Below are positions 1-23,274 of a DNA stretch of 29,048 nucleotides, piece by piece. The DNA comes from an uncultured archaeon. GTDB taxonomy: Archaea > Aenigmatarchaeota > Aenigmatarchaeia > QMZP01. Below the pieces are notes generated by a model. The model was not told where the DNA came from, made no database searches, and saw only the letters and a program-made list of their open reading frames with translations. How positions within the stretch are numbered: the first letter of the stretch is position 1; every line of letters starts with the position of its first letter. A program made the translations under genes and the position numbers. The stretch is taken from contig CAZCTG010000001.1 in NCBI GenBank assembly GCA_964501695.1, positions 1 through 29,048 of the forward strand, given 5' to 3'.

Positions 1-462
1 TGGTACCCTAGTGGCTCAGAAGGTCAAGATAAATACAACGGTAAGCCATTCCCAGACCTTAGTTGTTATGATGATTTTAGGATGAGCTTTCACAATCAAG
101 GTACTGAAGCGATACTGGTCAATTTGTGGATAACCACCGGCTACACCGATCCAGGATGGGAGCAACTGGGCACGTATGCTCAAAACGGCTGGGTCGAGGT
201 GTCAGAGTGTACATGGATAGAACTGGTGCTCAATTTTCACAATGCCGAGATGTGGCAAGATACCTGGCCAGATGGTCCGTGGGGTCAGTACACTGCCAGC
301 GGGGAAGTGCCGCACAGGAACTATCTTACCGGCATCGGATTTCAGCTTGTAACGCCAGTACCAGCAGACTTTAGCGTTGATGTGGATACGGTTCCTGAGC
401 CTGCGACGATTGCCATACTTGGCCTCGGAGGATTGCTTCTTCGCAGAAAACGGTTTGCATAG
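1..462 (+). CDS. PEP-CTERM sorting-domain protein, 5' end outside the window
   Basis: Frame 1 is open from position 1 (WYPSGSEGQDKYNGKPFPD...) into the listed ORF 82-462. It ends in VPEPATIAILGLGGLLLRRKRFA: PEP motif, hydrophobic helix and Arg/Lys cluster. Confidence 0.92.
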   Translation, partial: WYPSGSEGQDKYNGKPFPDLSCYDDFRMSFHNQGTEAILVNLWITTGYTDPGWEQLGTYAQNGWVEVSECTWIELVLNFHNAEMWQDTWPDGPWGQYTASGEVPHRNYLTGIGFQLVTPVPADFSVDVDTVPEPATIAILGLGGLLLRRKRFA

Positions 463-501
463 GCGTCTGCTAATTTTTTTAGTAATGGAGGTACAACAAG
501 T

Positions 502-1239
502 ATGAAGAAAATTAAGTTCATAGGTTTATTTGTGTTGTTTTGGATTTTAATCGCGGCAGGAGTTTCGGAAGCTACTCTGGTCGCTTACACCGGATTCGAG
601 GAAGTCATCGGAAGCAACAGCGTTTACACCGGTAATCTCACATCACCCGGATGGCTGCCTAACCGCGCCGACGAGATGGTAGTGGAATACTTGTTGCCTG
701 TGAATGAACTTGGATTCCGAACGTACTACAACGGGACTGACGGGCCCGTCTGGGGCACGGCAGATTCCGGTGACTTGATTGGCGTCTATGACTCAGGGCA
801 CAGCGGCAATAACTCGTTTGCATTGCAAGATACCGACCCGGAGTGCAGACTCGTCCTCGATGCTATGAGCCTCGTTGACTGGTCTGATGTCAACGTGACC
901 CTGTGGTTCAAGTTGATGGACACCGATTACACCAGCGCAGGCCCTGAAGGTAGGATGGCAGCATGGGTAGATACTGATGAAGGTAGATTCTACATTTTCG
1001 ACATGGACACAACAGAGCTAAACTTGCACAGCAAGGATTCATGGACGCTGTATAGCGTGAACATACCTAACTCTGCAACCACGGCAACGCTGAATTGGCT
1101 CGTCCACGTGCCTGGTTCAAGGCAGGGTGCCCAACTCGATGACATCCAGTTCACGGGTACTACCATTCCCGAACCGGCAACGGTTATTCTTTTAGGTCTT
1201 GGCAGCATTGCTTTGCTGCCGAGAGGGCGACAGAAGTAG
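502..1239 (+). CDS. Secreted PEP-CTERM sorting-domain protein (245 aa)
   Basis: SD GGAGGT upstream; signal peptide MKKIKF...SEA; C-terminal IPEPATVILLGLGSIALLPRGRQK; N-x-S/T sequons NLT, NGT, NNS, NVT. Confidence 0.93.
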   Translation: MKKIKFIGLFVLFWILIAAGVSEATLVAYTGFEEVIGSNSVYTGNLTSPGWLPNRADEMVVEYLLPVNELGFRTYYNGTDGPVWGTADSGDLIGVYDSGHSGNNSFALQDTDPECRLVLDAMSLVDWSDVNVTLWFKLMDTDYTSAGPEGRMAAWVDTDEGRFYIFDMDTTELNLHSKDSWTLYSVNIPNSATTATLNWLVHVPGSRQGAQLDDIQFTGTTIPEPATVILLGLGSIALLPRGRQK

Positions 1240-1274
1240 CAGCAACGCATATGTCGCAATAGCAACACTAAACT

Positions 1275-1323
1275 CAGAGAGCAAGGGGAAAGAAAACCAT
1301 CCTTGTTCTCTGTTTTGTTTTGT
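1275..1323 (+). terminator. Bacterial-type intrinsic terminator after the PEP-CTERM genes
   Basis: 12-bp stem CAGAGAGCAAGG (1275-1286) / CCTTGTTCTCTG (1301-1312) with one G-U pair, followed by TTTTGTTTTGT. Confidence 0.7.
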
Positions 1324-1337
1324 CAACTTAGAGGGAC

Positions 1338-1344
1338 TTCAGCT
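1338..1344 (+). repeat. Left target-site duplication (TTCAGCT)
   Basis: Identical to 5151-5157. An 8-bp identity CTTCAGCT (1337-1344 / 5150-5157) allows an alternative 9-bp TSD with one mismatch if the TIR starts at GGCTTTG (1346). Confidence 0.85.
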
Positions 1345-1362
1345 GGGCTTTGCTCCTAAACC
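1345..1362 (+). repeat. Left terminal inverted repeat GGGCTTTGCTCCTAAACC
   Basis: Exact reverse complement of 5133-5150. It resembles the IS903 IR (GGCTTTGTTGAATAAATC, recalled). Confidence 0.93.
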
Positions 1363-1402
1363 CCTAAAATCAAGCCCTCTTTAGGAGCAGAATGGTGAGG
1401 AT

Positions 1403-1630
1403 ATGAATAGAAAACAATTATTAAGGAAAGAAAAAATAATACATTATATGGGTCTGGTCATAAGGGTAGTAGCAAGCACAGTTCCAGCAATATTATCTGT
1501 TTTCTATGGTCTATCAGCTTATCAAAATGTAATTGCTGGAAAGAGTGTTTTATTTGAAAACAATCTTGATATATTATTATTTGTTATCTTCTTACTTTTT
1601 GTTCTTGGTTTGTTTGTGCAGAAAAAATAA
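1403..1630 (+). CDS. Small two-TM membrane protein, transposon passenger (75 aa)
   Basis: SD GGTGAGG just upstream; two hydrophobic segments; AT-rich; overlaps the transposase 3' end by 47 bp on the opposite strand. Confidence 0.7.
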   Translation: MNRKQLLRKEKIIHYMGLVIRVVASTVPAILSVFYGLSAYQNVIAGKSVLFENNLDILLFVIFLLFVLGLFVQKK

Positions 1631-2822
1631 ACTTTGGTGTTATCCCCAATTCCTTCATTTCGTGGATAACGCAAACAATGTTATGCGCTATGAACTTGCA
1701 CAATAGCTCGTTCTTCTGCGCTATGAAGTTCTTGCTTTTCAGCTTGTCGCCGAACTTCATTTTGACAGCTTTGAATGTGCTTTCTATATTGCTTCTTAGA
1801 TGATAATGCGTCATGAAGTCGTCACGATTCATCATGAAGTAATGATACATCTTTGACCATGTGTTTGAGCTATACCATCTAACGGCTGCGTTATGCTTGA
1901 AAGCTATGTATGGGACAGCACCTATGCTATTGACTACTTCGTGATTCTCATTACTTGAATACCCCTTGTCGGCAACAAGCTCTTGGATATTGAATCCGTT
2001 GCCATATGCTTCCAATAACATAGGTTTAAGCAGAGGGCAATCATTTACCCTTTCGCCTGTTATTTTAGCCCCGACTATCACATTTGTCTTTACTCCGATA
2101 AGGGCATGAGCCTTAACCCACCTGTGATGCTTCTCCTTGCCATATTTCTCTATGCCATACTGATTGAATTGGCTTGTTCGGAATCCTGTGCTATCCTGTG
2201 CAAATGTGCTTTCAATGCCACGCAGAGGCATAGCCGACAAGACAAGCAACCTATTCAGAACAAGCGTTATGTCCTCTCGCTGGAGCAGCTTGTTTATGGC
2301 ATTGAAGTTCGGTATTTTCTCTATATCCAACCTATCATGCGCTTTTGAGTATAGGGAATAAGCCCTTCGGCTTGATAGTTGGCTATACACCTTCTCTATG
2401 GCGCAATAGACGCTGTTTCTCATGCCCAATCGTGGCCTGCCTGTTATCTGCGGTAGCTCCGCTATGCTTCCGCAGAGGTCAGCAAGCAGCTTGTCAAAGA
2501 GTATAATCTCGCTTGTTTGGGCTGCATTGTATGAAGCCCATGCCTGCGGATATGTGACCTTCATGGTCTTGGTTATGGTTGTGTTTCCTTCCTCGTCTAT
2601 TTTTCTTTCAACTGTGAACATCACAGCATATTGATGTTTGCAAATGCAACCCCTTGTTTCATAGTCAGGGCAAGTGCAAGCGGTTTTGCCGTTATCTTCA
2701 TAGACAAGATAGCCACCATTCGTGGTTTGCGAGGGGACTATCCAGCCCTTCGGAGTTCTTGTCAACGCCTTTGTTTGGGCTATCTGCAAGCCCTTTATTC
2801 TTCGGTTGTTATTTTCTGTCAT
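1584..2822 (-). CDS. IS5-family DDE transposase with N-terminal SWIM zinc finger
   Basis: SWIM motif CTCPD...CKH. DDE motifs QDSTG, W-x-K-x-H, ND, ADKGY and YHLRSNIE-x-x-F, collinear with IS903-type transposases. Start moved to ATG 2822 (MTENN...), which has SD AGGTGA; the ORF track used GTG 2831. Confidence 0.95.
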   Translation of the reverse strand: MTENNNRRIKGLQIAQTKALTRTPKGWIVPSQTTNGGYLVYEDNGKTACTCPDYETRGCICKHQYAVMFTVERKIDEEGNTTITKTMKVTYPQAWASYNAAQTSEIILFDKLLADLCGSIAELPQITGRPRLGMRNSVYCAIEKVYSQLSSRRAYSLYSKAHDRLDIEKIPNFNAINKLLQREDITLVLNRLLVLSAMPLRGIESTFAQDSTGFRTSQFNQYGIEKYGKEKHHRWVKAHALIGVKTNVIVGAKITGERVNDCPLLKPMLLEAYGNGFNIQELVADKGYSSNENHEVVNSIGAVPYIAFKHNAAVRWYSSNTWSKMYHYFMMNRDDFMTHYHLRSNIESTFKAVKMKFGDKLKSKNFIAQKNELLCKFIAHNIVCVIHEMKELGITPKFIFSAQTNQEQKVRR

Positions 2823-2828
2823 ATCATT

Positions 2829-2911
2829 CACCTATTAATAATTGTTAGTTGTTATTAATAAAGATAACCGATAGCTTTATATATACCTTCATTAATAACC
2901 ATTAATAGGTG
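2829..2911. promoter_or_regulatory. Divergent promoter/operator region between transposase and RHH gene
   Basis: Perfect 11-bp inverted repeat CACCTATTAAT (2829-2839) / ATTAATAGGTG (2901-2911); four ATTAATA copies at 2834, 2854, 2891 and 2901; TTTATATA box at about 2877-2884. Confidence 0.7.
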
Positions 2912-2916
2912 CTAAT

Positions 2917-3057
2917 ATGCCCAAAAAGATGATATTGGAAGCTGATAACGAGCTTTGGAAGGATGTGTTGAAATTCAAGATAGACAAGAACCTCAAGAAC
3001 AACAATGAAGCCGTCATAGAACTGATAAAAATCGGGCTTAAGAAGCACGCAAAATGA
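2917..3057 (+). CDS. Ribbon-helix-helix regulator, 46 aa (not in the ORF track)
   Basis: Manual translation MPKKMILEADNELWKDVLKFKIDKNLKNNNEAVIELIKIGLKKHAK shows a strand-helix-helix pattern; SD AGGTG upstream. It explains the region better than the antisense ORF 2892-3089. Confidence 0.8.
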   Translation: MPKKMILEADNELWKDVLKFKIDKNLKNNNEAVIELIKIGLKKHAK

Positions 3058-3232
3058 GCACGAAATACACTTTTAAGCCTAATCACCAATATTTATACAA
3101 ACCTACAGAAGTTTGGCTGCCAAGTGGGTAAATGGGCGCTCCCAGCTCATGACCTTCTCATCACGCAGAGCGTCCTTAGTTTTTCTTCATTTAGCATGAA
3201 GGTTCCGTCACGCTCTTTTGTAATCCTTTACC

Positions 3233-4018
3233 TCAGGCTTTAACTCCTTCTGTAGATTTGCTTTTCTTTGTTCTTTCTATATCATGTTTTCTTTCCCAAT
3301 CCTCACGCATGGACTTTAGGGCTGCTTCAACCACAGGCCAATCCGAATCGGATTTTATGTCCCATACGAAATCTCTTTCAGGTGTCCCTATAGTTATTTG
3401 ATGCATGGCATCAGGTATTACAATCTTTGGTTTCTTAGTATCCGAACCAGATTCCTTGAGAATTTCTTGCTCTGCCTGTTTTATTGGTTCTGTGCTATCA
3501 ATCACTTTTTTAGCGACGTCTGTCAAAACAACTTTTGCTCCTCTGCCTTTGCCCGTATGCGTTAGGGTGTTAATGTATTCACCATAACTAAAGAATGTTC
3601 CAACCATTCGGTCAAGCAGTATATTTGAGCTTACACTCCCAAAGTTCTCAATGAATTTTACCTTGATGTCTTGCGAATTCGTTTCACCGCCTGAATGAAG
3701 AATCCATTTCACCATGCTGAGATATTCACTCGGAAGATTCCTTATCATTAATATGTTTCGTTTTTCGCCAGATGTTATTGATACCTGTCTGCCCAAATCA
3801 GTCAGATGAATTTTCTTGCTATCAGCATCTATGAAACCGAGATATTTAGCAAGATTCAGCGTATATTTTCTGTTGACGTTCTTCTTCTCGCTTAGGTTAG
3901 ACCAAAGCGTATCAACAAGCATCCCATCCTTCCCTGTATTCTTCAATTCGCTTATCATCTTGTCAAGTAGCCCCATGTTTGTGTTATAGGGCAACATTCC
4001 GCCTTTTTCTTTTTTCAT
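3233..4018 (-). CDS. Tandem winged-helix protein (DUF5343-like), transposon passenger
   Basis: SD AGGTGA; N-terminal PY motif; two wHTH-like wing signatures (AKYLGFIDADSKKIHLTDLG and TLTHTGKGRGAKVVLTDVA); small C-terminal domain after a charged linker. Family name is from recall. Confidence 0.6.
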   Translation of the reverse strand: MKKEKGGMLPYNTNMGLLDKMISELKNTGKDGMLVDTLWSNLSEKKNVNRKYTLNLAKYLGFIDADSKKIHLTDLGRQVSITSGEKRNILMIRNLPSEYLSMVKWILHSGGETNSQDIKVKFIENFGSVSSNILLDRMVGTFFSYGEYINTLTHTGKGRGAKVVLTDVAKKVIDSTEPIKQAEQEILKESGSDTKKPKIVIPDAMHQITIGTPERDFVWDIKSDSDWPVVEAALKSMREDWERKHDIERTKKSKSTEGVKA

Positions 4019-4148
4019 GTAATCACCTAATACTACATTGATTTTAAGCTATAGTTACATAATATGTCAATTTATTTATAAGGATAACGTAAGAAGCTAC
4101 TTTTAAGCTCTTTAAAGATGCTTATAAGTAGCGCAAACAATTGCTTTC

Positions 4149-4325
4149 ATGCCAGAGAAGAAATCCGACTTAAGCAAGACCGAGAGGGTGGGAGTCACAT
4201 TCACGAGGAAGCAGATTGAACTTTTGGACGAAATCGTGGTCGGCGGAAACATAGGCAGTAACAAACCCGAAGTCATAAAGTGGATAGTGATGGAATACTT
4301 AAGGCAGCACGATAAGCTCGGATAA
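4149..4325 (+). CDS. CopG/Arc/MetJ-type ribbon-helix-helix protein, 58 aa (not in the ORF track)
   Basis: MPEKKSDLSKTERVGVTFTRKQIELLDEIVVGGNIGSNKPEVIKWIVMEYLRQHDKLG matches the RHH pattern; TATA-like CTTATAAG at 4121-4128. Confidence 0.88.
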   Translation: MPEKKSDLSKTERVGVTFTRKQIELLDEIVVGGNIGSNKPEVIKWIVMEYLRQHDKLG

Positions 4326-4328
4326 TAT

Positions 4329-4532
4329 TTAATCTTCTTTTTCTGTGACAGCCAATAACAACGCCCTGACATGCGAACCGACTGTTTCTGGTATTGGGTT
4401 TCCATTTGAATCCATTTTCACTTCAGATAGTTGTTTGATTAGCTTTTCGTTATTTGGAAACTTTAACTTTCTATCTTCCATCAATTTTTTTAATTTAAAT
4501 AAACTCTCTTTAAGGTCTATCTCCCTTGTCAT
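4329..4532 (-). CDS. Small hypothetical protein resembling the C-terminal tail of a terminase large-subunit nuclease domain
   Basis: LKKLMEDRKLKFPNNEKLIKQL...GSHVRALLLAV parallels the recalled pattern Lk.l.e.g.l.lP....li.eL...hDD.v.alalA. It has its own TATA (TTTTAAAT on the minus strand) about 25 bp upstream. Confidence 0.55.
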   Translation of the reverse strand: MTREIDLKESLFKLKKLMEDRKLKFPNNEKLIKQLSEVKMDSNGNPIPETVGSHVRALLLAVTEKED

Positions 4533-4579
4533 AACAAGAAAATAGATTGACTATTTAAAAGCATTTTGGACTCAAAACT

Positions 4580-4855
4580 TCATTCTATTAAGCAACCCTT
4601 TTCAAAGCTTTCAAGTTCTTCTAAACCACCATAATAATACACATCATAGCAAGCTCTATAAAACTCATTGTAGATTGCTGGTATATCTTTATCTTCGCCT
4701 GCGCACCAAGTCGCACATTCTTTTATCTTCTGCGATACTTCTAACTTCTGCTGGACATCTTCTCTGTATGAATCATAAGCTGTATTATTGGATGCGCATC
4801 CAGAAATGATTATGACAGCAACAATTCCGATTGGGAGTATCCAGCGAATATCCAT
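4580..4855 (-). CDS. Predicted lipoprotein/secreted small protein, passenger
   Basis: Hydrophobic N-terminus ending in lipobox-like ISGC; four further Cys. Confidence 0.8.
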   Translation of the reverse strand: MDIRWILPIGIVAVIIISGCASNNTAYDSYREDVQQKLEVSQKIKECATWCAGEDKDIPAIYNEFYRACYDVYYYGGLEELESFEKGCLIE

Positions 4856-4875
4856 AAAATCACTGCTTCCAGCTC

Positions 4876-5082
4876 TTATTTAGCTCTCCTAAATGTCAAT
4901 AAAGGATAACCGAAAGAAAAAACACTGCCGACACTGCTTTGCTGAATAAGCTCCCATCCCACACTTGCCATTCTATTCACTGTTTCTTCTGTCCACTCTG
5001 GAACATTTCTTTTGAAACGGTCAAAATACGTCATTTGAACTGTTGTGTATTCGTATTCTATCTTTGGCTTCTTAACAGGCAT
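4876..5082 (-). CDS. DUF4177-like small protein, passenger
   Basis: EYEYTTV...VNRMASVGWELI...LTFRR matches the recalled DUF4177 pattern (EYK.v...LN.lG..GWELV...l.FKR); TATA TTTTTAAG at 5104-5111 (minus). Confidence 0.72.
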   Translation of the reverse strand: MPVKKPKIEYEYTTVQMTYFDRFKRNVPEWTEETVNRMASVGWELIQQSSVGSVFSFGYPLLTFRRAK

Positions 5083-5132
5083 ATCTAAAAGTGAGATTTG
5101 TGGCTTAAAAACGCCTTTAGGAGCAACCTATA

Positions 5133-5150
5133 GGTTTAGGAGCAAAGCCC
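5133..5150 (-). repeat. Right terminal inverted repeat GGTTTAGGAGCAAAGCCC
   Basis: Exact reverse complement of 1345-1362. Confidence 0.93.
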
Positions 5151-5157
5151 TTCAGCT
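5151..5157 (+). repeat. Right target-site duplication (TTCAGCT)
   Basis: Identical to 1338-1344. Confidence 0.85.
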
Positions 5158-5273
5158 TAATATCAGGGCTCTGCGAAATAATTGCCATGTAGAGCCTCTT
5201 GGGGCATGCAGTTCCCCTGCCGGACGTGGCCGGGTTTTTGCCGTAATAAAAGAAGATGTCCGCTTTTCAGGGC

Positions 5274-5585
5274 TCACTCTTCCAGCACAGCCCTATTGTC
5301 GAAGCCGCCAAGCTTCCTTATCTTGTGCTTTCTCATGCTTTCCACAGCCTCGACCGAGATTTTATTGTGCTTCATGTAGGAATTTATGGCCTCCACGATG
5401 TCGACAATCTCATCGACTTCCCTATTCTCGGTTTTCGCCTCTTTCAGCCTGCCGGCGCTTTCCAGAATGCTGTGTTTCAGCGCCTCGATGAACTCCGCAT
5501 CTTCAGCTGCCCTGACCTTGCTGCGCTCCTTCTTCCCGAAGAACATTTTCGGTATCTTGTCCCTTATGAGATGCAGTTTCCCCAT
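5274..5585 (-). CDS. All-alpha NTP pyrophosphohydrolase (MazG superfamily, COG4997-like) with eroded active site
   Basis: L(I/V)RDKIP N-terminus, EIVD (ExxD) and R-K-x-x-x-K-x-GGF...VLE tail. The EExxE position reads ESAGR. Confidence 0.8.
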   Translation of the reverse strand: MGKLHLIRDKIPKMFFGKKERSKVRAAEDAEFIEALKHSILESAGRLKEAKTENREVDEIVDIVEAINSYMKHNKISVEAVESMRKHKIRKLGGFDNRAVLEE

Positions 5586-5672
5586 CCTTTATGTTGCGAA
5601 TTGGACTTAAAAGGGGATTTTGACCTAAAAACTATTTTTCGCCAGCTCCTTGCTGTCAACTGTGGTAGCCTT

Positions 5673-5784
5673 ATAAACAGAGTTTAGTATCTGATTGTAT
5701 GATAAACTGGAGTTTAGTTTAGGTATTAAAACTAAAGTTACTTTATAAATGAGTTATAGTTTATGTAATCTTTATAAACTAAAC
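5673..5784. promoter_or_regulatory. AT-rich repeated palindromic boxes upstream of the Fic gene
   Basis: TAAACAGAGTTTA (5674-5686), TAAACTGGAGTTTA (5703-5716), degenerate TAAATGAGTTATA (5746-5758) and half-site TAAACT (5775-5780). Confidence 0.5.
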
Positions 5785-5815
5785 ATGCTATATATTTAAC
5801 ATAAAAGTGGTTTTC

Positions 5816-7021
5816 ATGCAAGAGAATGAATTCTCAGGAACCAAAACTGGTCGTCTGGTATGGGAACAGAATGGTATGTATTATAGGTTTGAGCCCAACC
5901 CTTTGCCACTTGGTTTCAATCTCACAGCTACGCTCGGGAACCAGCTACTGAATACATCGCATGTCCTGGGACAGTTGGACGGTCTAACCAGCAAGCTATC
6001 GGAAGAAGAAATAAGCCTTCTTAGGCTGCCTTTCATAATGAAAGAGGCGCAACTAAGCTCTGAAATAGAGGGCACAAGATCCACCCTCAGTGATGTTTAC
6101 AAAGGCGAGAAGCAGAAGGAAACAGATGCCCAGAAGGCATTGGATAATGAGGAAATTCAGAACTACGCAGAAGCTCTTGGTTATGGCCTCACCATAGCCA
6201 TGGAGAAAGGGATAACAGAAGAACTGATAAAGAGAATGCATGAAATACTGCTTCGAGGTGTCCGTGGTTCCGACAAGCAGCCTGGAGAATACAAAATCCA
6301 TCAGAATGCCATAGGCAGCAGGCAGGACACCATGGAAAGTGCAAAATTCGTTCCTGCATCCCCGGGAACTACTCCTTCTTTGATGGAGAACCTCATTGAG
6401 TTCCTGAACAATGACAGGACAAGCAACGTCCTTTTCAAGACAGCAGTAAGCCATTATCAGTTCGAGGTCATCCACCCTTTCAGGGATGGCAATGGCCGGC
6501 TTGGAAGGCTGCTCATAATGCTCATGCTTTACAAGGACGGTATACTATCGCAGCCGCTTCTCTACATCAGTGAATATTTCAACAGGAACAGAAGCGCATA
6601 CACGGAATCGTTGTATGATGTGAGCTCTAAAAACAAGGTTGAGGAATGGGTGATGTTTTTCCTAAAGGCCTTGGAAGTTCAGGCCAAGAGTTCCCTGAAA
6701 CTGATACGGGATCTGGAATATTACAAGAGAGAAATGAAAGATGTCATGTGCAAGGTGTCCAGCAGCATAAAGATGGACCAGCTGATAAACCTCCTGTTCA
6801 AGAATCCTTTCATAACCATAACAGACGTTGCTAACGCCCTGGGAATGACCGTGCCCGGGGCCTCCAACCTGGTTCATAAGTTGGAGAGCAGAGATATTCT
6901 TAAGGAAATAACAGGGAAGAAAAAAAGAAAGATTTTTCTGGCTCACATTATTCTGGACATCCTTGAGGGCAGACAGGTTATGAGAAATCACTCGAAGACA
7001 GAGAGTTCTGCATCCAAATAA
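5816..7021 (+). CDS. Fic-family protein with N-terminal autoinhibitory motif and C-terminal wHTH
   Basis: Catalytic HPFRDGNGRLGR; inhibitory SSEIEG; C-terminal ITITDVANALGMTVPGASNLVHKLESRDILKEITG HTH. ATG 5816 is preferred to GTG 5807. Confidence 0.95.
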   Translation: MQENEFSGTKTGRLVWEQNGMYYRFEPNPLPLGFNLTATLGNQLLNTSHVLGQLDGLTSKLSEEEISLLRLPFIMKEAQLSSEIEGTRSTLSDVYKGEKQKETDAQKALDNEEIQNYAEALGYGLTIAMEKGITEELIKRMHEILLRGVRGSDKQPGEYKIHQNAIGSRQDTMESAKFVPASPGTTPSLMENLIEFLNNDRTSNVLFKTAVSHYQFEVIHPFRDGNGRLGRLLIMLMLYKDGILSQPLLYISEYFNRNRSAYTESLYDVSSKNKVEEWVMFFLKALEVQAKSSLKLIRDLEYYKREMKDVMCKVSSSIKMDQLINLLFKNPFITITDVANALGMTVPGASNLVHKLESRDILKEITGKKKRKIFLAHIILDILEGRQVMRNHSKTESSASK

Positions 7022-7098
7022 CCATATATGGAACCGTGGGCGTGGATTACGAGCTCCTAAAGGAGCTTGCCGACAATGTGGCCGCCAAGATAGCCTGA
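6967..7098 (+). pseudogene. Decapitated 3' gene remnant overlapping the end of the Fic gene
   Basis: A different frame reads GQTGYEKSLEDREFCIQITIYGTVGVDYELLKELADNVAAKIA-stop. It looks protein-like, has no ATG, and is bounded upstream by TGA at 6964-6966. Confidence 0.4.
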
Positions 7099-7124
7099 TT
7101 TAAGCCGGGAATGCAATTCTGTGC

Positions 7125-7487
7125 ATGGCAAAAAACCCCGCAGAGACTTTCATCAAGGAGATAGTCCTAGGTTTTGGCTTCTTCAGTGGTATATTCGCAT
7201 ACATAGGCATAGACCCGCAGATTGAGTTGCTGAAAGTGGTAGCTTCACTGATACCCAATGGCGGCATATATGTATGGCTCATATCAGTCGCGCTTTTCGC
7301 AATCTCCTCAATACTCACTTATGTTGTGGGAGGCCCTGTTGGCATAATTGCTGTAATTCTGGCGTTCTTCGGGGGCCTTTTCATAGCAACGAATAGCGCT
7401 CTCGGTGTATTTCTGACCATCGCCGCAATTGGCGCGGGATATTTGGCCATATACTTGAAAGGAAATAGCCAGAGACTACTTTTTTGA
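7125..7487 (+). CDS. Hypothetical multi-pass membrane protein (120 aa)
   Basis: Four hydrophobic Gly-rich segments. Confidence 0.8.
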   Translation: MAKNPAETFIKEIVLGFGFFSGIFAYIGIDPQIELLKVVASLIPNGGIYVWLISVALFAISSILTYVVGGPVGIIAVILAFFGGLFIATNSALGVFLTIAAIGAGYLAIYLKGNSQRLLF

Positions 7488-7519
7488 ATGGTTTATAAAT
7501 AAAAATGACAACTATGCAT

Positions 7520-7714
7520 ATGGATTCCAATGAACCTACGAGCGTAACAAAAAGAAATAGGAAACCTGTTTATATCGCTGCTATTATACTTATGGTCATA
7601 TTGGGATTTCTTGTAATTCTTCACCACAGCGCGAAAAATATTCGCAGTACTTGCACATCCAGCCCCACTCTTCGCGCGCCTTTGCCTCTGCTTCGGGCAG
7701 CGCGCCCGACTTGA
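7520..7714 (+). CDS. Small single-TM protein, possibly 3'-truncated
   Basis: TTTATAAA at 7492-7499 fits a leaderless start at ATG 7520; one TM helix. The last 119 bp are antisense to Cas4 and look like read-through. Confidence 0.4.
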   Translation: MDSNEPTSVTKRNRKPVYIAAIILMVILGFLVILHHSAKNIRSTCTSSPTLRAPLPLLRAARPT

Positions 7715-8273
7715 GTTTGCTGTCCAGTTCCGCGAACCGCGCGATTGCCGCCTCCGCTGCGTTCCTGTCGTAGTTCACCGTGAACCACTTGCCTTCCAGC
7801 GAGTTCTTTTCAAGATAGAGTATGACGCCTTCCTTGACTTCGTGGGCATGGAGATAGAGCTGAAGCTGCATCACGTGCGCGTCCTGCGGCGCGTCCATCC
7901 AGCCCAGCTTCAAGCCCGTGCTCTTGACCTCCAGTATGAACCTGCGGCCGTCGGCAGTCAGCATGAAGACGTCGTCAAGCCTGCCTGAAACGACGAAATT
8001 CGGCTGCCTTATCTTCAGCGAAACCTCCTTCTCGAGCAGCTTCACTTCCGTGTTCTTCGGACTTTCAAGCACTTCCGCCATGAAGTCGTGCAGCAGGCCG
8101 CCGAGGTAGAAATACTTGCCCTTCTTGGGGTCGGTGGGCTGCGGATACTTGTATGAATACCATGCCTTACGCATGCAGCTCCCTGCCTCCGACGGATAGT
8201 AGCTGCCTATCCTCTTGGGCCTGCTGTCGCGTTCAAGGTGCCTCTCAATCAGTTTGTTGAAGTCAACGGGCAT
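7596..8273 (-). CDS. cas4: Solo Cas4-like PD-(D/E)XK nuclease with a predicted 4Fe-4S cluster
   Basis: N-terminal Cys (GSCMRK) and C-terminal CKYCEYFSRC; motifs GGLLH, GRLDD, EVKS and QLQLY. No cas1 or CRISPR array in the window. ATG 8273 preferred as start. Confidence 0.88.
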   Translation of the reverse strand: MPVDFNKLIERHLERDSRPKRIGSYYPSEAGSCMRKAWYSYKYPQPTDPKKGKYFYLGGLLHDFMAEVLESPKNTEVKLLEKEVSLKIRQPNFVVSGRLDDVFMLTADGRRFILEVKSTGLKLGWMDAPQDAHVMQLQLYLHAHEVKEGVILYLEKNSLEGKWFTVNYDRNAAEAAIARFAELDSKLKSGALPEAEAKAREEWGWMCKYCEYFSRCGEELQEIPI

Positions 8274-8310
8274 GGAAAATCCCCCACCCAAATGCTGGAT
8301 TTTACTGTCC

Positions 8311-8338
8311 CATGAGTTGCCTGTGCATTGAACTCATG
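8311..8338. other. Intergenic hairpin between the 51-aa ORF and cas4
   Basis: Perfect 8-bp stem CATGAGTT / AACTCATG with a 12-nt loop. Confidence 0.45.
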
Positions 8339-8376
8339 TGGGCATGGATAGAATTGGCGGCCGAGAATAAATGCAT

Positions 8377-8532
8377 TTAACCCAGCAGGACCTTCTGCTG
8401 CCTGCTCCATTCTTTGTCCGGGGTGTTTTTCACCCATTCCGCATGCATCTTCACGAATTCCAGCCGCTGCTTCCTGTTGAGTTCCATCTCCTTCTTAAGC
8501 GCCTTGAGGTCTATTTCAGGAAGCTTTTCCAT
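8377..8532 (-). CDS. 51-aa protein coupled to the nucleotidyltransferase gene (not in the ORF track)
   Basis: MEKLPEIDLKALKKEMELNRKQRLEFVKMHAEWVKNTPDKEWSRQQKVLLG. It starts 4 nt after the upstream stop, and GGAGTGA spanning that stop serves as SD. Confidence 0.8.
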   Translation of the reverse strand: MEKLPEIDLKALKKEMELNRKQRLEFVKMHAEWVKNTPDKEWSRQQKVLLG

Positions 8533-8536
8533 GGAA

Positions 8537-9136
8537 TCACTCCAGTTCCTTTATCCTGCCGAGGACTTTGAGCCTGCGGGCAAACCCCATGAATACTTCT
8601 TTGTCAATCTTGCCCTTAAAGATATGCCACAGGTGAATCGCATCCTCTATGTCCTTTTCGGAGCCGAGATACAGTTTGAATGCAATCTGCAGCTCAATCT
8701 TCGACGTCCACAGCGAGCCTGAAGGCGTGTGCACCCTGATTTTATTGGCAAGCGAATAATGGTTGAGGTCGGTCTTGGGGAACTTGACTTCAAAGTTAGG
8801 CTCAATCCTGCCCTTTTCGGCAAACCTCAACGAAAGTCCGGACTTCAGGTAGTTATTGTACCCATCATTCGGTTCGTTCGTGGTCATGCTCTCGAAACCT
8901 CCTTTGCCAAGTTTATCCCATAATTGCAGAAACTTGTCATAACTCATGTCCTCAACGAACAAGTCCACATCCTCTGTCTGCCTGCTTCGGCCGAAAAGCA
9001 GCGCCACATAGCCTGAAACTATGACGTAATCCACGCCTAGCTTCTCCAGCGTGCTGGTGAATCTCAGCACAAGCTTGTCCAGAGTGGAAGGCACCCTGTC
9101 AATAATTATTACGCCGGACTTGAGGTCTATTTCCAT
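8537..9136 (-). CDS. AbiEii/MenT-like (Pol-beta fold) nucleotidyltransferase
   Basis: IVSGYVALLFGRSRQTEDVDLFV (hG/S...R.T.DhD) and C-terminal K...GSEKDIED. Confidence 0.8.
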   Translation of the reverse strand: MEIDLKSGVIIIDRVPSTLDKLVLRFTSTLEKLGVDYVIVSGYVALLFGRSRQTEDVDLFVEDMSYDKFLQLWDKLGKGGFESMTTNEPNDGYNNYLKSGLSLRFAEKGRIEPNFEVKFPKTDLNHYSLANKIRVHTPSGSLWTSKIELQIAFKLYLGSEKDIEDAIHLWHIFKGKIDKEVFMGFARRLKVLGRIKELE

Positions 9137-9156
9137 ACCCTAAATTGCCTGAATTC

Positions 9157-9166
9157 AATATAAAGG
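9157..9166. promoter_or_regulatory. Single TATA element shared by the divergent genes starting at 9136 (-) and 9185 (+)
   Basis: TATAAA at 9159-9164 lies at the centre of a 48-bp gap, about 24-25 bp from each ATG; neither gene has an SD. Confidence 0.6.
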
Positions 9167-9184
9167 CGCTTCACAATATTTATC

Positions 9185-9967
9185 ATGGCTGACATCATCA
9201 ACCCATTTCTCATGCTCGCGGGCATTGGCATGATGGCCGTGGCCGCCATAGCCGTTGCCTACTGGAAAAGACGTTCTAGTTGGAAGTGGTTCTCCTACGG
9301 CGCTCTGGTATGGATTGCTGCCATTGCGGTCAAGCTGGCCATGGACATGACGATAACCCAGCCCGTCGAAAACGGCATCCTCGACCTTTACGGGATGGCT
9401 GCTGTGATTGCATTCGCTTCCGTCTATGTCGGGCTTCGGACGGGATTTTTCGAAAGCGGATTCACGTATCTATTCGCAAAGAAGAGGGCCAAGAAGAACA
9501 AGGCAAAGATTACGTTCAATGATGCCGTAGCCTTCGGCATCGGCTTCGGCGCGCTGGAGGCATTCCTTCTTGGCCTGATGTCATTCCTCAACATACTTGC
9601 GATATACCTTTACCCAGCCCTGCTCGACCCCCTCGGCGCTGTGCAGAAGGACATGGTGATTTCAGCCCTCAGCCAGAGCACGCTGGTCGTGATTCCTGCG
9701 ATAATCGAGCGTGTGGCTGTCGTGTTCATACACGCCTTTGCCGCGGTTCTCGCGATAGCATCTGTCAACACGAAAAGGGCCAAATACATCTGGGGCTCGG
9801 TTGCTTACAAATCGGTCACGGATGGCATCGTGCCGCTACTTCCCTTCATAGCCGGTTCAGGTTTGCTGTCGTCTTTTGCCATGGAAGTGCCGTTCGTGGT
9901 GCTTGCCGTCATCGGATATTTCGGCATCCGCGAGATGAGGAGCAAATTCAGGGAGGAAGCCAAATGA
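9185..9967 (+). CDS. YhfC/PrsW-superfamily intramembrane metalloprotease
   Basis: Multi-TM; motifs GFFES, GIGFGALEA and IERVAVVFIH. Confidence 0.82.
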   Translation: MADIINPFLMLAGIGMMAVAAIAVAYWKRRSSWKWFSYGALVWIAAIAVKLAMDMTITQPVENGILDLYGMAAVIAFASVYVGLRTGFFESGFTYLFAKKRAKKNKAKITFNDAVAFGIGFGALEAFLLGLMSFLNILAIYLYPALLDPLGAVQKDMVISALSQSTLVVIPAIIERVAVVFIHAFAAVLAIASVNTKRAKYIWGSVAYKSVTDGIVPLLPFIAGSGLLSSFAMEVPFVVLAVIGYFGIREMRSKFREEAK

Positions 9968-10200
9968 GCTACGTGACCCACATAGTCGGCATGCTTGACA
10001 AGGCGGGCGCTGAGCGCAGCCCGCAGAACAAGGCGCTCCTCGACCAGTCCGTCCGCGAGGTGCTGGGCATGCAGCGCGCCGACTGGCAGGAGGTCTGGGC
10101 GAGGGTCAAGGCGCTGATGCAGGGCAGCGACAGGGAGAAGTGGAAGTCATTCGAGTCCCAGGTCACCAAGCTGCTCGTCAGGAAGATGCTTATAGGATAG
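9964..10200 (+). CDS. Hypothetical protein (78 aa)
   Basis: ATGA overlap with the upstream stop; host-like GC; helical. Confidence 0.75.
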   Translation: MSYVTHIVGMLDKAGAERSPQNKALLDQSVREVLGMQRADWQEVWARVKALMQGSDREKWKSFESQVTKLLVRKMLIG

Positions 10201-10247
10201 CCAAAATATAGAGTCTTCTTCCAGCCCTTTCCCATGATGAATTATGA

Positions 10248-11129
10248 CTAAAGCATTTCCCTCATTTTTTCCGCAATGAGGGGAATGACGGAAACCTGCG
10301 AGACAGGCGTTTCAATGGTGTCCGTGGCTATTATGCCGTCCGCGAACGGCCTGAGCTTCTCGATGGCCTCCGCCTTCGTGAGATGTACCGCGGCGGCGGT
10401 CACGCTGGCCGCGCCCGCATCCCTTGCCATCTTCGCCGCATTGGCCATCGTGCCGCCCGAGCTTATGATGTCGTCAATGATTATCACGTCCTTCCCTTCC
10501 GCTTCAATGCTGCCCGTTGTCTTGAGGCCTCCATCTTCAAGATTCCTCTCCTTGGACAGGCAGCCATGTCCGCAGCCGATGGCATCGGCAATCCTTCTTG
10601 CCGCGAATTCAACGCCCGCGTCCGCGCCTATGACGAGCGGGCTGGCAAGGTTCAGCTGTTTCAACTCCTCACCCAGCAGCGAGTATCCGTCTATGTTGTG
10701 CGCTGGCATCGCCGAGAACGAGAGCATCGGCTTGTCCCTGTCCGCGTGGGACGATACCGTGAAGAAGCGGGAAACGCCGCTGCGCAGCAGCAGGTCGGTA
10801 ACAGCCCTCGCGGAAAGCGGCTCGCCTTCCCTGAAGCTCTTGTCCTGCCGCGAATAGATGAAATACGGCATCGCGAGCCATACGTCGCAGCCCATGCCTT
10901 TCAGGCTGCTGGCTGCCAGCAGGGTTTCGACAAGATAGCCGTTCGCGTCTACTGGCAGCTTCATGCGGTTGGCAAGGACGACCCTGCCTTCGGGCCTGCC
11001 TGACAGCCGCGGGCAGACCTCCCCGTCGGGGAACGTGCGCCTTTCCATCGGGATGAACCTGCAGCCCATCGCCTGCGCCAGCCCGTCCGCGAAGCCTTCA
11101 TAACCAGCAACTGATATGTCGGAAGCCAT
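10248..11129 (-). CDS. prs: Ribose-phosphate pyrophosphokinase
   Basis: FPDGEV, YSRQDKSFREGEPLS, KER and PRPP loop VIIIDDIISSGGT. Confidence 0.95.
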   Translation of the reverse strand: MASDISVAGYEGFADGLAQAMGCRFIPMERRTFPDGEVCPRLSGRPEGRVVLANRMKLPVDANGYLVETLLAASSLKGMGCDVWLAMPYFIYSRQDKSFREGEPLSARAVTDLLLRSGVSRFFTVSSHADRDKPMLSFSAMPAHNIDGYSLLGEELKQLNLASPLVIGADAGVEFAARRIADAIGCGHGCLSKERNLEDGGLKTTGSIEAEGKDVIIIDDIISSGGTMANAAKMARDAGAASVTAAAVHLTKAEAIEKLRPFADGIIATDTIETPVSQVSVIPLIAEKMREML

Positions 11130-11173
11130 CTTTACCTACCTGAATCATCAAACCGCATATGACAAGAATCGAA

Positions 11174-11701
11174 TCATGCATCATATTTTATCAGGGAAAA
11201 TATCTCGTAACCAGGGAACTGCTCCCTTCCCTTGAGGTAGCCGAGCTCTATGAGGAAGCATATGCCCGCGACATCTCCGCCAAGCTGCCTTACCAAATCA
11301 ATCGAGGCCTTCATCGTGCCGCCCGTGGCCAGCAGGTCGTCGACCAGAAGCACCTTCTCGCCGTGGAGTATGCCGTCCTTGTGCATGTGCAGGCTGTCCT
11401 CGCCGTATTCCTTGCTGTAGCTGGCGCTTATGGTTTCATAGGGCAGCTTGCCCTTCTTTCGCACGGGCACGAAGGCCACGCCGAGTTCGTATGCGAGCGC
11501 CGCGCCTATTATGAAGCCGCGCGCCTCCGCGCTTACGACCGCGTCTATCTTCCTGTCCCTGAATCGGTTGGCTATCTCACTCATGGCGAACTTGAAAGCC
11601 ACAGGGTTCCTCAGCAGGGTGGTTATGTCCTTGAACGACACGCCTTTCCTCGGCCAGTCGGGTATGTCCCTCACCATGCCCCTGAGGGTTTCGATGTCCA
11701 T
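11174..11701 (-). CDS. apt: Adenine phosphoribosyltransferase
   Basis: IPDWPRKGVSFKDIT, EARGF, RKKGKLP and VLLVDDLLATGGT. Confidence 0.97.
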   Translation of the reverse strand: MDIETLRGMVRDIPDWPRKGVSFKDITTLLRNPVAFKFAMSEIANRFRDRKIDAVVSAEARGFIIGAALAYELGVAFVPVRKKGKLPYETISASYSKEYGEDSLHMHKDGILHGEKVLLVDDLLATGGTMKASIDLVRQLGGDVAGICFLIELGYLKGREQFPGYEIFSLIKYDA

Positions 11702-11710
11702 GAGAGTGAT

Positions 11711-11738
11711 TGGGTTAGTGATTTAAATCCAAAACCCA
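11711..11738. promoter_or_regulatory. Palindromic bidirectional promoter between apt and ORF 11749
   Basis: TGGGTT-AGT-GATTTAAATC-CAA-AACCCA; the dyad axis (11724.5) matches the midpoint between the two ATGs (11701 and 11749). Confidence 0.7.
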
Positions 11739-11748
11739 TAGTGGAACG

Positions 11749-12099
11749 ATGGAAAGAAACATCAAACTCAGCATCAAAGCCAGCAGGAAGCTATATATTA
11801 TATTGGCCATCGTCATTGTAGTTCTTGTTGTTTTGGCAGCTGTTCTTCTGATGCCTCCTGCAAACACGGCGGAGATAAACAGGGCTTCGTGCGAATCATC
11901 GGGCGGGACGTGGAACGAGTGCGGCAGCCCCTGCACGGGCGCGCCGCAGGGCACGGTCTGCATACAGGTATGCCGCCAGCAGTGCGAGTGGTACGCGGGC
12001 AGCGCCGAGGTTGCGAAAAAATCAGCTTATGCCGCGCAGCAGGGGTTCAGTTGCATGACGCAGGACAACGGCATCACGATGTGTTGGCTGAGCAACTAA
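11749..12099 (+). CDS. Membrane-anchored Cys-rich small surface protein
   Basis: N-terminal TM followed by CESSGGTWNECGSPC...CIQVCRQQC and a distal C...C pair. Confidence 0.8.
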   Translation: MERNIKLSIKASRKLYIILAIVIVVLVVLAAVLLMPPANTAEINRASCESSGGTWNECGSPCTGAPQGTVCIQVCRQQCEWYAGSAEVAKKSAYAAQQGFSCMTQDNGITMCWLSN

Positions 12100-12129
12100 C
12101 CGCTTTGTTATTTTGGCTAACGCGGAGGA

Positions 12130-12564
12130 TTACGTTATATCAAGCGCGCGCAGCGCTATGTTCCTGACGTCAGCAGGCACCCTGTCCTGCTTCAGCTCTT
12201 CAGCCGAGAACCACCTGAAATCATCCAGCTCGGATGTGTTGAGCTTCAAATTCTGCATCCCCCTCGGCTTGCACAGGTAATAGAAGCAGCAATGGTCGTG
12301 GTCGCCGACGCTATGCACATTGACATAGAAAGGTACAGCTAGTTGCCTTTTGATATTGCCTGCCATAGGCACGTCATTCTTGCCCAGCAGCTCCACGTCG
12401 AGGTTCAGTTCTTCTTTAAATTCCCTTATGACCGCGTCGTCAGGTACCTCGTCCTTCTCTATGTGCCCGCCGGGCGGCAGCCACAGCTGTAGCTTCCTGT
12501 GGAATATCAGGAGAACTTTGCCTTCGTGAACGAGATATCCTGCCACGACAAGGTCTGTTTTCAT
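12130..12564 (-). CDS. NUDIX hydrolase
   Basis: Nudix box GGHIEKDEVPDDAVIREFKEELNL. Confidence 0.95.
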   Translation of the reverse strand: MKTDLVVAGYLVHEGKVLLIFHRKLQLWLPPGGHIEKDEVPDDAVIREFKEELNLDVELLGKNDVPMAGNIKRQLAVPFYVNVHSVGDHDHCCFYYLCKPRGMQNLKLNTSELDDFRWFSAEELKQDRVPADVRNIALRALDIT

Positions 12565-12624
12565 GCCATATTTTGAGAAAGACGGTTAAAATATATGTCC
12601 GTTCTTAACCCCCACTTGCCGTGC

Positions 12625-14724: not shown

Positions 14725-14807
14725 AGCTACTAATTGAGGGCAGATTTTTTAAATGGATGCATGCTTTTCCCAATGGGGCACCGAAAAGCTTTTAAGGGTT
14801 TCGGTTT

Positions 14808-16619: not shown

Positions 16620-16664
16620 GCATTATTGTTATGAAGAAACCAATATAAACCAATGGACAGGCCG

Positions 16665-19049: not shown

Positions 19050-19114
19050 CCCAACACCCTATAACTATTATTATTGCGCTATATTTAATGTAATATCTTG
19101 TTAATGATGTTATC

Positions 19115-19393
19115 ATGCCGAAAACCAGAATGCCGAAAACTGACGCGAAGCTGAAATCCGAGACGGAGAAATGGCTCGCGAAGCTGGAGAAGAAGGCCAC
19201 GGGCGCGAAGCCTGCCGAAGGCATGCTCGAAAGCAGGGTCGTGGGCAACGCGATGGAGAACGTGGACGCTTACATCAAGGATTGCAGGCATTTCCTTGAA
19301 AAGAAAGATTATTTCAATGCCTTCGAGGCCATAATTTACGCGTACGGTATTTGGGAAACGCTTGAGAGGATGAAGCTGCTGTCTGAGAAGTAA
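19115..19393 (+). CDS. DUF357-domain protein
   Basis: AYIKDCRHFLEKKDYFNAFEAIIYAYG matches the archaeal DUF357 pattern. Confidence 0.85.
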   Translation: MPKTRMPKTDAKLKSETEKWLAKLEKKATGAKPAEGMLESRVVGNAMENVDAYIKDCRHFLEKKDYFNAFEAIIYAYGIWETLERMKLLSEK

Positions 19394-19687
19394 TTATTTC
19401 CTCTTCCCTCTTGCCTGCCTGGCATCTTCCTCGTGTATGCCGAGGATGATGAGCTTGATGAGGAAGAAGCCGACGAGACCGCCGAACAGAGTGCCACCCA
19501 CGTATATCCATGGGTCGGTGAATATGTATTTCGTCGGCGGGAACAGGCTGCCGCCGGGATAGAAGTTCCAGTGTATGTCAAATACATAAAGGGCGAGCAG
19601 GGCTATGAGCGCGGGCACGGCGAAGAATATGATGTCGGCAATTATCTCGTTCCTCGTGACGCGTGTCTTCCTGACTCGGTGGAGCAT
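19394..19687 (-). CDS. Hypothetical two-TM membrane protein
   Basis: Two hydrophobic helices around an aromatic/Pro loop; abuts the DUF357 stop convergently. Confidence 0.8.
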   Translation of the reverse strand: MLHRVRKTRVTRNEIIADIIFFAVPALIALLALYVFDIHWNFYPGGSLFPPTKYIFTDPWIYVGGTLFGGLVGFFLIKLIILGIHEEDARQARGKRK

Positions 19688-19711
19688 ATTTTAAATTCGT
19701 TTAGCCTGCTT

Positions 19712-20032
19712 TTATACAACCCTTATTATCCTGCAGTTCTCGGCGACCTCGACGAAATGGTGCGCGGTAATGCCGTAGGACGGACACTGATTCGCAGGGT
19801 CGTCATCGACAGCCTCGCGCGGGCTGTGCGCCATGTCGCATACCCAGTCCGGCGCTATGTTGTCGTCAAGGCACGGCCCTTTGCTGAAATCAATCTTGGT
19901 GGAAACAAGCTCTATGCATTTGTCCTGGCATGCGCTGGAAGCCTGGCTTGCGCCAGCGCCGCCGTTGCTTACCACGCAGCCGCTTATTGCCGCAATTGCA
20001 ATCAACAAAACAAAGAGTAACCGAAGCCTCAT
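19712..20032 (-). CDS. Predicted lipoprotein, Cys/His-rich conserved hypothetical
   Basis: Lipobox-like ISGC; GPCL...DWVCDMAHSPR...NQC...HHFVE pattern, recalled from DPANN/CPR hypothetical proteins. Confidence 0.8.
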   Translation of the reverse strand: MRLRLLFVLLIAIAAISGCVVSNGGAGASQASSACQDKCIELVSTKIDFSKGPCLDDNIAPDWVCDMAHSPREAVDDDPANQCPSYGITAHHFVEVAENCRIIRVV

Positions 20033-20142
20033 ATGTTAAGTTATTCCAAGATGCTTAAAAGCATATCAATCCGGTCCTGCCTATAATCCTGTAAGACAGA
20101 GTGTAAGCAAGCACTTTTAAGTCAGCTCGGACAACAAACATC

Positions 20143-20604: not shown

Positions 20605-20633
20605 GGCTTAACTACAGTAAAAACAGCCATAAC

Positions 20634-21431: not shown

Positions 21432-21550
21432 AAACTTCGCCTTGTCCTTTCGCCATACTCTTGTTGACGGAGCCGCTTCTTTCTCTTTGCTAATAGCGGC
21501 GTTTAACTTTAGCTCTCCCCTTCCTTTTGTTTGGGATTGATGTTCGCGCG

Positions 21551-23215: not shown

Positions 23216-23274
23216 GTTTTTATTTATGTTTCCCTCAACCAAATATTATATTGGTATTTGGTTATCCACCAAAG

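Follow-up and report, generated by a model that had tools for sequence, protein, structure and literature searches.

PEP-CTERM genes of bacterial type linked to the chromosome of a probable DPANN archaeon, and the small sortases that might read them

The window considered here is the entire contig C1 (29,048 b) of a metagenome-assembled genome (MAG) labelled G000, which was analysed alongside a congeneric MAG labelled G001. Its left-hand end, bases 1-1344, carries two tandem genes, ORF1 and ORF502, the products of which terminate in the PEP-CTERM sorting signal, a feature treated as a signature of Gram-negative bacteria. On present evidence the pair is supported as a true part of the archaeal chromosome, an assembly artefact being disfavoured, and comparison with homologues indicates that the genes were most likely acquired from bacteria resembling Planctomycetota or Phycisphaerae. 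The further idea that an archaeal sortase reads the PEP motif is compatible with the data and as yet unproven. Archaeal PGF, PEF and PEFG systems have been described, while no description of canonical PEP-CTERM in archaea was found in the literature, the coverage of which was incomplete. A canonical PEP-CTERM stably kept in an archaeon with only small, unclassified sortases would offer a natural test of the signal specificity of exosortases and archaeosortases.

Both proteins display the expected tripartite layout at the extreme C terminus, namely (V/I)PEP, a Gly/Leu-rich helix and a basic cluster, ORF1 ending in ...DTVPEPATIAILGLGGLLLRRKRFA and ORF502 in ...TTIPEPATVILLGLGSIALLPRGRQK. Against Pfam PF07589 (cut-off 20.7 bits) ORF1 scored 24.0 bits and ORF502 20.4, i.e. 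0.3 under; against NCBIfam TIGR02595 (cut-off 16 bits) the scores were 22.8 and 16.0, the latter exactly at the cut-off, and a whole-genome scan returned 25.3 and 20.2 bits, respectively. The models for PGF-, PEF- and VPXXXP-CTERM gave no match to either protein at E<=0.1. The sequence-only reading of this DNA, which had described two tandem genes with (V/I)PEP-transmembrane-basic tails, is thus borne out by the co-oriented open reading frames (ORFs) and by both family models. For ORF1 the N terminus falls outside the contig; that of ORF502 reads MKKIKFIGLFVLFWILIAAGVSEA followed directly by TLV, with a helix at residues 2-18 in the AlphaFold2 (AF2) model. The same model (pLDDT 80.5, pTM 0.76) places a beta jelly-roll between the N-terminal and C-terminal helices, for which Foldseek returned a porphyran-binding carbohydrate-binding module (CBM), CBM16, CBM22, CBM61, MAM domains, the gingipain "cleaved adhesin" and HpiC1-type cyclases (E ~1e-5 to 1e-6; TM-score 0.45-0.6 relative to the target). 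A glycan-binding or adhesive function is the likeliest role suggested by this predicted fold. The four N-x-S/T sequons reported earlier in ORF502 are present (N45, N77, N103, and N131), but they are not diagnostic of archaeal N-glycosylation because the Phycisphaerae homologue introduced below likewise has four.

The linkage of PEP-CTERM genes to archaeal DNA, first proposed for the window, recurs in three further independent places. The third such gene of G000 (C20:111-716, tail ...IKIPEPATLVLLGVSVLCLFLWRRPKLT) lies 7 kb from an archaeal L11-L1-P0 cluster on a contig that also holds KaiC and geranylgeranyl pyrophosphate (GGPP) synthase. In G001, a gene for a 570-aa PATR and PEP-CTERM protein (C15, 6150-7862, + strand; PF07589 26.5 bits) is internal to its contig, with TYW2/PurQ/PurL on one side and LigT on the other, in a stretch syntenic with G000:C33. 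The last instance is P0002, the sole close homologue of ORF502 recovered in a word-based search of 5.8 billion proteins (62% identity, tail PEPATMALLVLGGLGLLVRRRHS), which is encoded on a 6.8-kb metagenomic contig beside PcrB of the GGGP-synthase family; its Big_13 neighbour resembles a surface protein encoded on G000:C17, and the ENA sample of origin also contains a 77%-identical copy of the type-2 sortase of G000 described below. Downstream of P0002 (L005:2779-3114, + strand) there is a signal-peptide ORF with the start ...TMTWNGSSSVDFGNAANWTGG..., which by eye resembles the N termini of PVC-type autotransporter-repeat/PEP-CTERM proteins and has no significant match in Pfam; the ORF is a possible sign that this relative has a small island of surface genes of bacterial type.

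G000 itself (786 kb in 94 contigs, 84% complete, contamination 0.33%) is an archaeal genome, as judged by Ribosomal_S8e encoded on C34 and by the RL10P insertion domain of its P0 protein, which answers the earlier concern that the contig might be bacterial overall. The uL1 of G000 has Nanobdellota neighbours in the Atlas (a lead only), and the host is probably a DPANN archaeon of the Nanobdellota; as the MAG yielded no rRNA and the window no tRNA, this assignment is based on the protein markers and the Atlas neighbour. In tetranucleotide distance from the rest of the genome, bases 1-1344 fall at the 77th percentile of equal-sized chunks. GC content at third codon positions (GC3) is 0.49 in ORF1 and 0.59 in ORF502; the genome averages 0.65 (sd 0.13), and the Phycisphaerae homologue has 0.87.

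The cargo transposon that separates the pair from the remaining contig was also informative. The matching target-site duplications (TSDs) that had been noted on its two sides were confirmed, TTCAGCT flanking the perfect 18-nt inverted repeats at both ends with a chance probability of ~6e-5 for the 7-nt match; accordingly, the block at 5158-7590 and the PEP-CTERM pair were contiguous until the transposon inserted between them. Related elements occur on four other contigs of G000, one with both ends present at 84% nt identity (C38:2288-5045) and three as diverged SWIM-DDE transposases (C7:6828-8035, 63% identical; C9:6872-8078, 62%; C30:4976-6157, 41%). These relatives indicate that the element belongs to the mobile DNA of G000 itself, and with the nearest other copy only 84% identical, none is similar enough to cause a mis-join inside it.

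Regarding origin, a HMMER profile of the ORF502 domain, run against 1.84 billion representatives, retrieved a family of 77 proteins that the word-based search had missed beyond one relative. Many of the members are ~240-270 aa long and consist of a signal peptide, an "AYTGFEE...DNIxF" domain and a tail, and the classifiable tails are mostly PEP-CTERM, VPLPA-like (VPVP/VPLP) or T9SS-like; as these are bacterial sorting signals, the family is bacterial in affinity. The members with a taxon name are MBN1347384.1 from a Phycisphaerae MAG (86-kb contig) and a VPLPA-CTERM protein from Desulfosarcina (6.5-Mb contig); a related-loci search with a 4-row alignment returned the Phycisphaerae MAG as the only match. 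MBN1347384.1 (P0124; JAFGLZ010000260.1) shares with ORF502 its length of 245 aa, signal peptide, beta-sandwich ("AYTGFEE...DDIxF") and PEP-CTERM tail, at 37% identity end to end (E = 1e-45), but differs in its bacterial host and higher GC3, and the archaeal pair stands on a branch of its own. In a maximum-likelihood tree of 41 members of up to 345 aa (unrooted, longer members being omitted), ORF502 paired with P0002 (SH-aLRT 99) within a six-member clade (99) that includes the Phycisphaerae and Desulfosarcina proteins. The homologues and this tree support the earlier proposal of a bacterium-to-DPANN transfer from a Phycisphaerae/Planctomycetota-like source. As leads only, the language-model neighbours of ORF1 and of the C20 protein all fall in bacterial PEP-CTERM clusters.

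The time elapsed since acquisition seems to differ between the genes. ORF502 and P0002 have diverged to saturation at synonymous sites (proportion of differences, pS, 0.75) with a nonsynonymous proportion (pN) of 0.27 and the PEP motif kept, which argues that the transfer was not very recent and that purifying selection has acted in archaea. By comparison, the transfer of the G001 PATR/PEP-CTERM gene looks more recent than that of ORF502: its product is 60-68% identical to many Planctomycetota MAG proteins across 55-72% of its length, and its GC content is 0.64 (0.60-0.66) vs 0.53-0.59 in the flanks. Across the phylum, matches to the PEP-CTERM model are confined to 6 of 371 genomes (1.6%), namely G000 and G001 of the same genus, G332 of the same family, and G049, G205 and G236 of the same class, and in the low-GC members the GC content of the tail-bearing genes is near that of their hosts. 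When the ORF502 family profile was applied to five related archaeal genomes, only tail-level matches were obtained. DPANN genomes often contain bacterial genes, so a transfer of PEP-CTERM genes would be no major surprise.

A search of G000 for exosortases and archaeosortases (PF09721, TIGR04178) detected two genes (58 and 45 bits with TIGR04178; 36 bits with PF09721), so that the genome-wide count proposed at the outset stands at three PEP-CTERM genes and two sortase homologues. Type 1 (C16:6023-6478), with an orthologue in 28 of 41 related genomes, scored 53 bits with XrtX (cut-off 170), 52 with XrtH (86) and 33 with ArtA (75). Type 2 (C29:8316-8843, + strand) is a divergent protein of 176 aa that scored 43 bits with ArtB (cut-off 150), and its orthologues within the 47-genome family are limited to G332 and G017. 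As read from the sequence, both keep the Cys/Arg/His of the membrane-embedded core of the superfamily (type 1, ...SADCTGWK..., ...NIFRV..., ...VHDYVWQ...; type 2, ...ALCTGIG..., ...NLARL..., ...VHWFIWK...) and are putative enzymes. Their neighbourhoods comprise a thioredoxin reductase, a pilin-like gene, DUF460, IleRS and a beta-helix protein, with no exopolysaccharide genes.

The conserved neighbours of these sortases point to a different signal. A census of C-terminal anchors in G000 revealed only two recurring motifs, PEP in three genes and PGFE in two (on C19 and C29). The type-2 gene immediately follows IleRS, and its 3' end overlaps the 3' end of the beta-helix gene C29:8791-10227 (- strand), the product of which ends in ...STPGFEPSMLAMVIAALLAGLFLLKPGTKW. 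Three more loci (L064:1879-4057, L065, L066:4229-5682) show a sortase gene convergent with a PGFEP-tailed one in the same way: contigs from an NCBI MAG and from Logan encode sortases 73% identical to type 2 with the neighbouring tail ...ATPGFEPGLLIIFFSALLAGLLLPIASTRR, and a JGI contig encodes a 52%-identical sortase beside a different, 277-aa cargo with the tail ...SAPGFEPSLLAIALASLIAALFLPKLR. The arrangement is conserved at four loci, where the cargo is of two kinds and each tail consists of [ST/A]PGFEP, a helix and basic residues; the type-2 sortase and PGFEP-CTERM form a probable dedicated system that goes undetected by the curated models for PGF and PEF: TIGR04126 (PGF-CTERM) and TIGR03024 (PEF-CTERM) matched none of 41 genomes, that is, G000 and 40 relatives. 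The native signal in the lineage appears from these tails to be a PGFE(P)-CTERM variant with a Gly/Ala/Leu helix and a basic tail. Within 1.5 kb of the type-1 sortase, no tail-bearing gene was found in the 28 relatives; in G332:C152 (L049, 2491-2799 (-) and 1316-1903 (-)), a Cys-rich protein (...AAPGFEIGMHAILVASLLAVLFFMI), the PGFE tail of which has no final basic cluster, is encoded two genes from the type-1 sortase with a DUF460-like gene in between, so both sortase types have PGFE-tailed neighbours somewhere in the family. In G017:C2 (L038), a CDP-alcohol phosphatidyltransferase (PF01066, 68 bits; 712-1335, - strand) lies immediately downstream of the type-2 sortase (1432-2016, - strand), an arrangement that recalls the ArtA-PssA link of haloarchaea and hints, by analogy, at lipid anchoring of the substrates.

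None of the closest known systems fits G000 in full. The PEP-CTERM/exosortase system (EpsH, XrtA/XrtB) belongs to Gram-negative bacteria (Haft et al. 2006, PMC1569441; PF07589, TIGR02595), and G000 resembles it in its canonical tails at the extreme C terminus, several unrelated cargo domains and the presence of an exosortase-superfamily homologue. It departs from that system in having an archaeal host without an outer membrane, no XrtA/XrtB-type exosortase, sortases of only ~170-180 aa that fall below every named cut-off, and just three cargo genes, beside which neither PrsK/PrsR-type regulators nor an exopolysaccharide locus were seen; the bacterial combination of an outer-membrane host and a sortase-linked exopolysaccharide locus is therefore not found in G000. 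The PGF-CTERM/archaeosortase A system of Haloferax volcanii and methanogens unites a tripartite signal, an exosortase homologue and lipid attachment (Haft et al. 2012, PMC3256604; PMC6098224). The PGFE(P) tails of the lineage and the phosphatidyltransferase of G017, reminiscent of ArtA with PssA, are points of likeness to it, but TIGR04126 finds no counterpart, the window tails are PEP and the type-1 enzyme falls well short of the ArtA cut-off. The VPXXXP-CTERM/archaeosortase B system (TIGR04144) provides the best named sub-family for type 2, both enzymes being small (~156-176 aa), although the type-2 score is far below the ArtB cut-off and the neighbouring tail is PGFEP, not VPXXXP.

The explanation favoured as a whole, albeit with moderate confidence, combines archaeal PEP-CTERM genes, transfer from bacteria, retention and processing by a sortase. 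Under this scheme, a bacterial-type PEP-CTERM set (three genes in G000 and one in the congener) would have been acquired horizontally and kept under purifying selection. ORF502 would be exported by its Sec signal peptide, held in the membrane at first by its C-terminal helix, and would display the CBM-like beta-sandwich, likely glycan-binding or adhesive, at the cell surface; one of the two small sortases would then cleave at the PEP motif and, in the manner of ArtA, attach the protein to a lipid. The proposal that a resident sortase handles PEP tails stems from the resemblance of the native (F)EP core and small-residue helix to (P)EP and ATxxLLGLG, a likeness that could have made imported PEP-CTERM cargo usable at once and hence retained. 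Two of the three type-2 genomes in the 47-genome family also have PEP-CTERM, and the assignment of PEP to the type-2 sortase by this co-occurrence (raw hypergeometric p ~0.008) was considered and rejected as decisive, because related genomes are not independent, G017 has no PEP, G236 has PEP-like tails with a type-1-like sortase only, and the type-2 neighbour carries PGFEP.

Several observations weigh against the favoured explanation. The basic cluster of ORF502 (PRGRQK) is weak and its Pfam score falls just short; both sortases of G000 score below the cut-offs of all named Xrt and Art families; no sortase adjoins any PEP-CTERM gene; and the conserved neighbours of the sortases carry PGFE(P), not PEP. 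G017 has a type-2 sortase and no PEP-CTERM; G001 and G049 (63% and 77% complete) have PEP-CTERM and no detected sortase; and in G236 (97% complete) the only detectable sortase is type-1-like, the GAPEP tails occurring there in two neighbouring genes (C15, L045, 622-1407 (-) and 1831-2241 (-); GAPEP(G/A)T(L/V)VLAG(L/F)G...RRR). Neither enzyme is picked out by these patterns, and for a sortase-PEP pairing the phylogenetic profile is a hint, not decisive evidence. The tree is unrooted and most members of the ORF502 family have no taxon name, two of the three PEP-CTERM genes of G000 lie at contig ends, and the join between the first 7.6 kb and the core (at ~7.5 kb) is the one given by the assembly, the left block being absent from G001.

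The last of these points would suit a block (1-1344 or the whole of 1-7.6 kb) derived from a co-occurring bacterium and joined by the assembler or by binning, given its position at a contig end beside mobile DNA and a variable region, and the bacterial look of the encoded proteins. This is nevertheless judged highly improbable, for a chimeric join within the transposon would leave no matching 7-bp duplications and the MAG holds no sufficiently similar copy of the element; the composition of the block is no outlier, with GC3 values far from that of the Phycisphaerae homologue; genes of this kind reside on three more archaeal contigs, from two MAGs and one metagenome, the one in G001 having archaeal genes on both sides; and the estimated contamination of the MAG is low. 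The reverse direction of transfer, in which an ORF502-type family native to DPANN archaea was passed on to bacteria, is left room by the unrooted tree and by the many metagenomic members whose host is not known. It is deemed very unlikely, however, when an archaeal context is known for only 2 of the 77 representatives, members bear bacterial T9SS and VPLPA-CTERM tails, the named ones sit on bacterial contigs of 86 kb to 6.5 Mb, the family was not found in the five related archaeal genomes, and PEP-CTERM occurs in so small a share of the phylum. Should the genes be both real and horizontally acquired, the tail might still go unprocessed and serve as a permanent transmembrane anchor, the PEP motif being an undecayed relic or kept for some other reason. 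Many surface proteins of G000 end in a transmembrane helix and basic residues with no shared motif, which makes simple tail anchoring the local norm, and the lack of adjacent sortases, the PGFE(P) neighbours and the sortase-less G001 and G049 all agree with it; yet PEP and its Gly/Leu-rich helix survive in ORF502 and P0002 although synonymous divergence between the two is saturated, and also across four unrelated cargo proteins of the genus, the PEP-tailed genes of low-GC relatives at host GC suggest long retention, and sortase homologues with intact Cys/Arg/His are present. This alternative is therefore regarded as rather unlikely. A bolder variant, in which a small DPANN archaeosortase with native PGFE(P) specificity also accepts bacterial PEP, entire bacterial surface proteins can be acquired across domains and displayed at once, and the Planctomycetota source reflects physical association of the archaeal genus with Phycisphaerae-type bacteria as host or partner, is held to be unlikely.

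Beyond signal specificity, these genes raise a second question, namely whether compatible sorting signals ease the cross-domain transfer of surface proteins. The type-2 sortase, tied by conserved gene order to its PGFEP-tailed neighbours, offers a testable enzyme-substrate pair and is a useful by-product of the analysis, and the Planctomycetota-like source of the PEP-CTERM genes hints at the organisms living beside this uncultured DPANN lineage.

The features of the window are collected in Table 1. ORF1 and ORF502 are probably co-transcribed, as the intergenic gap is only 39 nt. Behind ORF502, the predicted hairpin, with 14 pairs and a 2-nt bulge in its stem, precedes TTTTGTTTTG; the 105-nt tail 3' of the gene folds at -27.9 kcal/mol (z = -2.6), and a simple consensus terminator scan left the hairpin unflagged. 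An oligo-T tract is compatible with archaeal termination too, so of the "bacterial-style hairpin terminator" originally described, the hairpin and T tract stand while the label is uninformative on origin. The left 7.6 kb, comprising the PEP-CTERM pair, transposon and Fic gene, was not found in G001, where a family-2 glycosyltransferase adjoins the Cas4-like gene in its place (C97:1-934), and the Cas4-YhfC interval of the congener holds a phosphatase-like gene where the window has a nucleotidyltransferase. Judged by this gene content, window 1-7590 is a hot spot of gene turnover, and the window from 7.6 to 20 kb retains 70-84% nt identity to G001. The four extra SWIM-DDE family members are unusually many for a genome so reduced (~0.8 Mb).

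Table 1. Coordinates of features in the 29,048-b window
Feature	Position	Strand	Remarks
ORF1	1-462	+	PEP-CTERM protein, 3' part only (153 aa); gene truncated at the contig start
ORF1 sorting tail VPEPATIAILGLGGLLLRRKRFA	391-459		stop codon 460-462
Shine-Dalgarno-like GGAGGT	487-492	+	9 nt ahead of the ORF502 ATG; read from sequence
ORF502	502-1239	+	245 aa; putative signal peptide ~residues 1-24
ORF502 CBM/MAM-like beta jelly-roll	574-1158		~residues 25-219
ORF502 PEP-CTERM tail IPEPATVILLGLGSIALLPRGRQK	1165-1236		
Terminator-like hairpin and T-rich tract	1275-1322	+	hairpin 1275-1312, T-rich tract 1313-1322; predicted by folding
TSD TTCAGCT, left copy	1338-1344		
Cargo transposon, 3.8 kb	1345-5150		perfect 18-nt terminal inverted repeats 1345-1362 and 5133-5150; passenger genes inside
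Transposase, SWIM and DDE_Tnp_1	1584-2831	-	inside the transposon
TSD TTCAGCT, right copy	5151-5157		
Rest of variable block	5158-7590		103-aa ORF (-), Fic/DOC protein 5807-7021 (+), 120-aa membrane protein
Conserved archaeal core	7596-22738		Cas4-like nuclease, YhfC, PRPP synthase, NUDIX, surface proteins, PEP synthase, cysteine desulfurase; synteny with G001 (70-84% nt identity)

Last in the window, a gene at 22975-27597 (+ strand) encodes a protein of 1540 aa with two Laminin_G_3 domains and a GDSL/SGNH esterase domain. Its GC of ~30%, in a contig of 55% GC, and its tetranucleotide distance (99th percentile) clearly mark the gene as foreign; its product ends in a plain transmembrane anchor.

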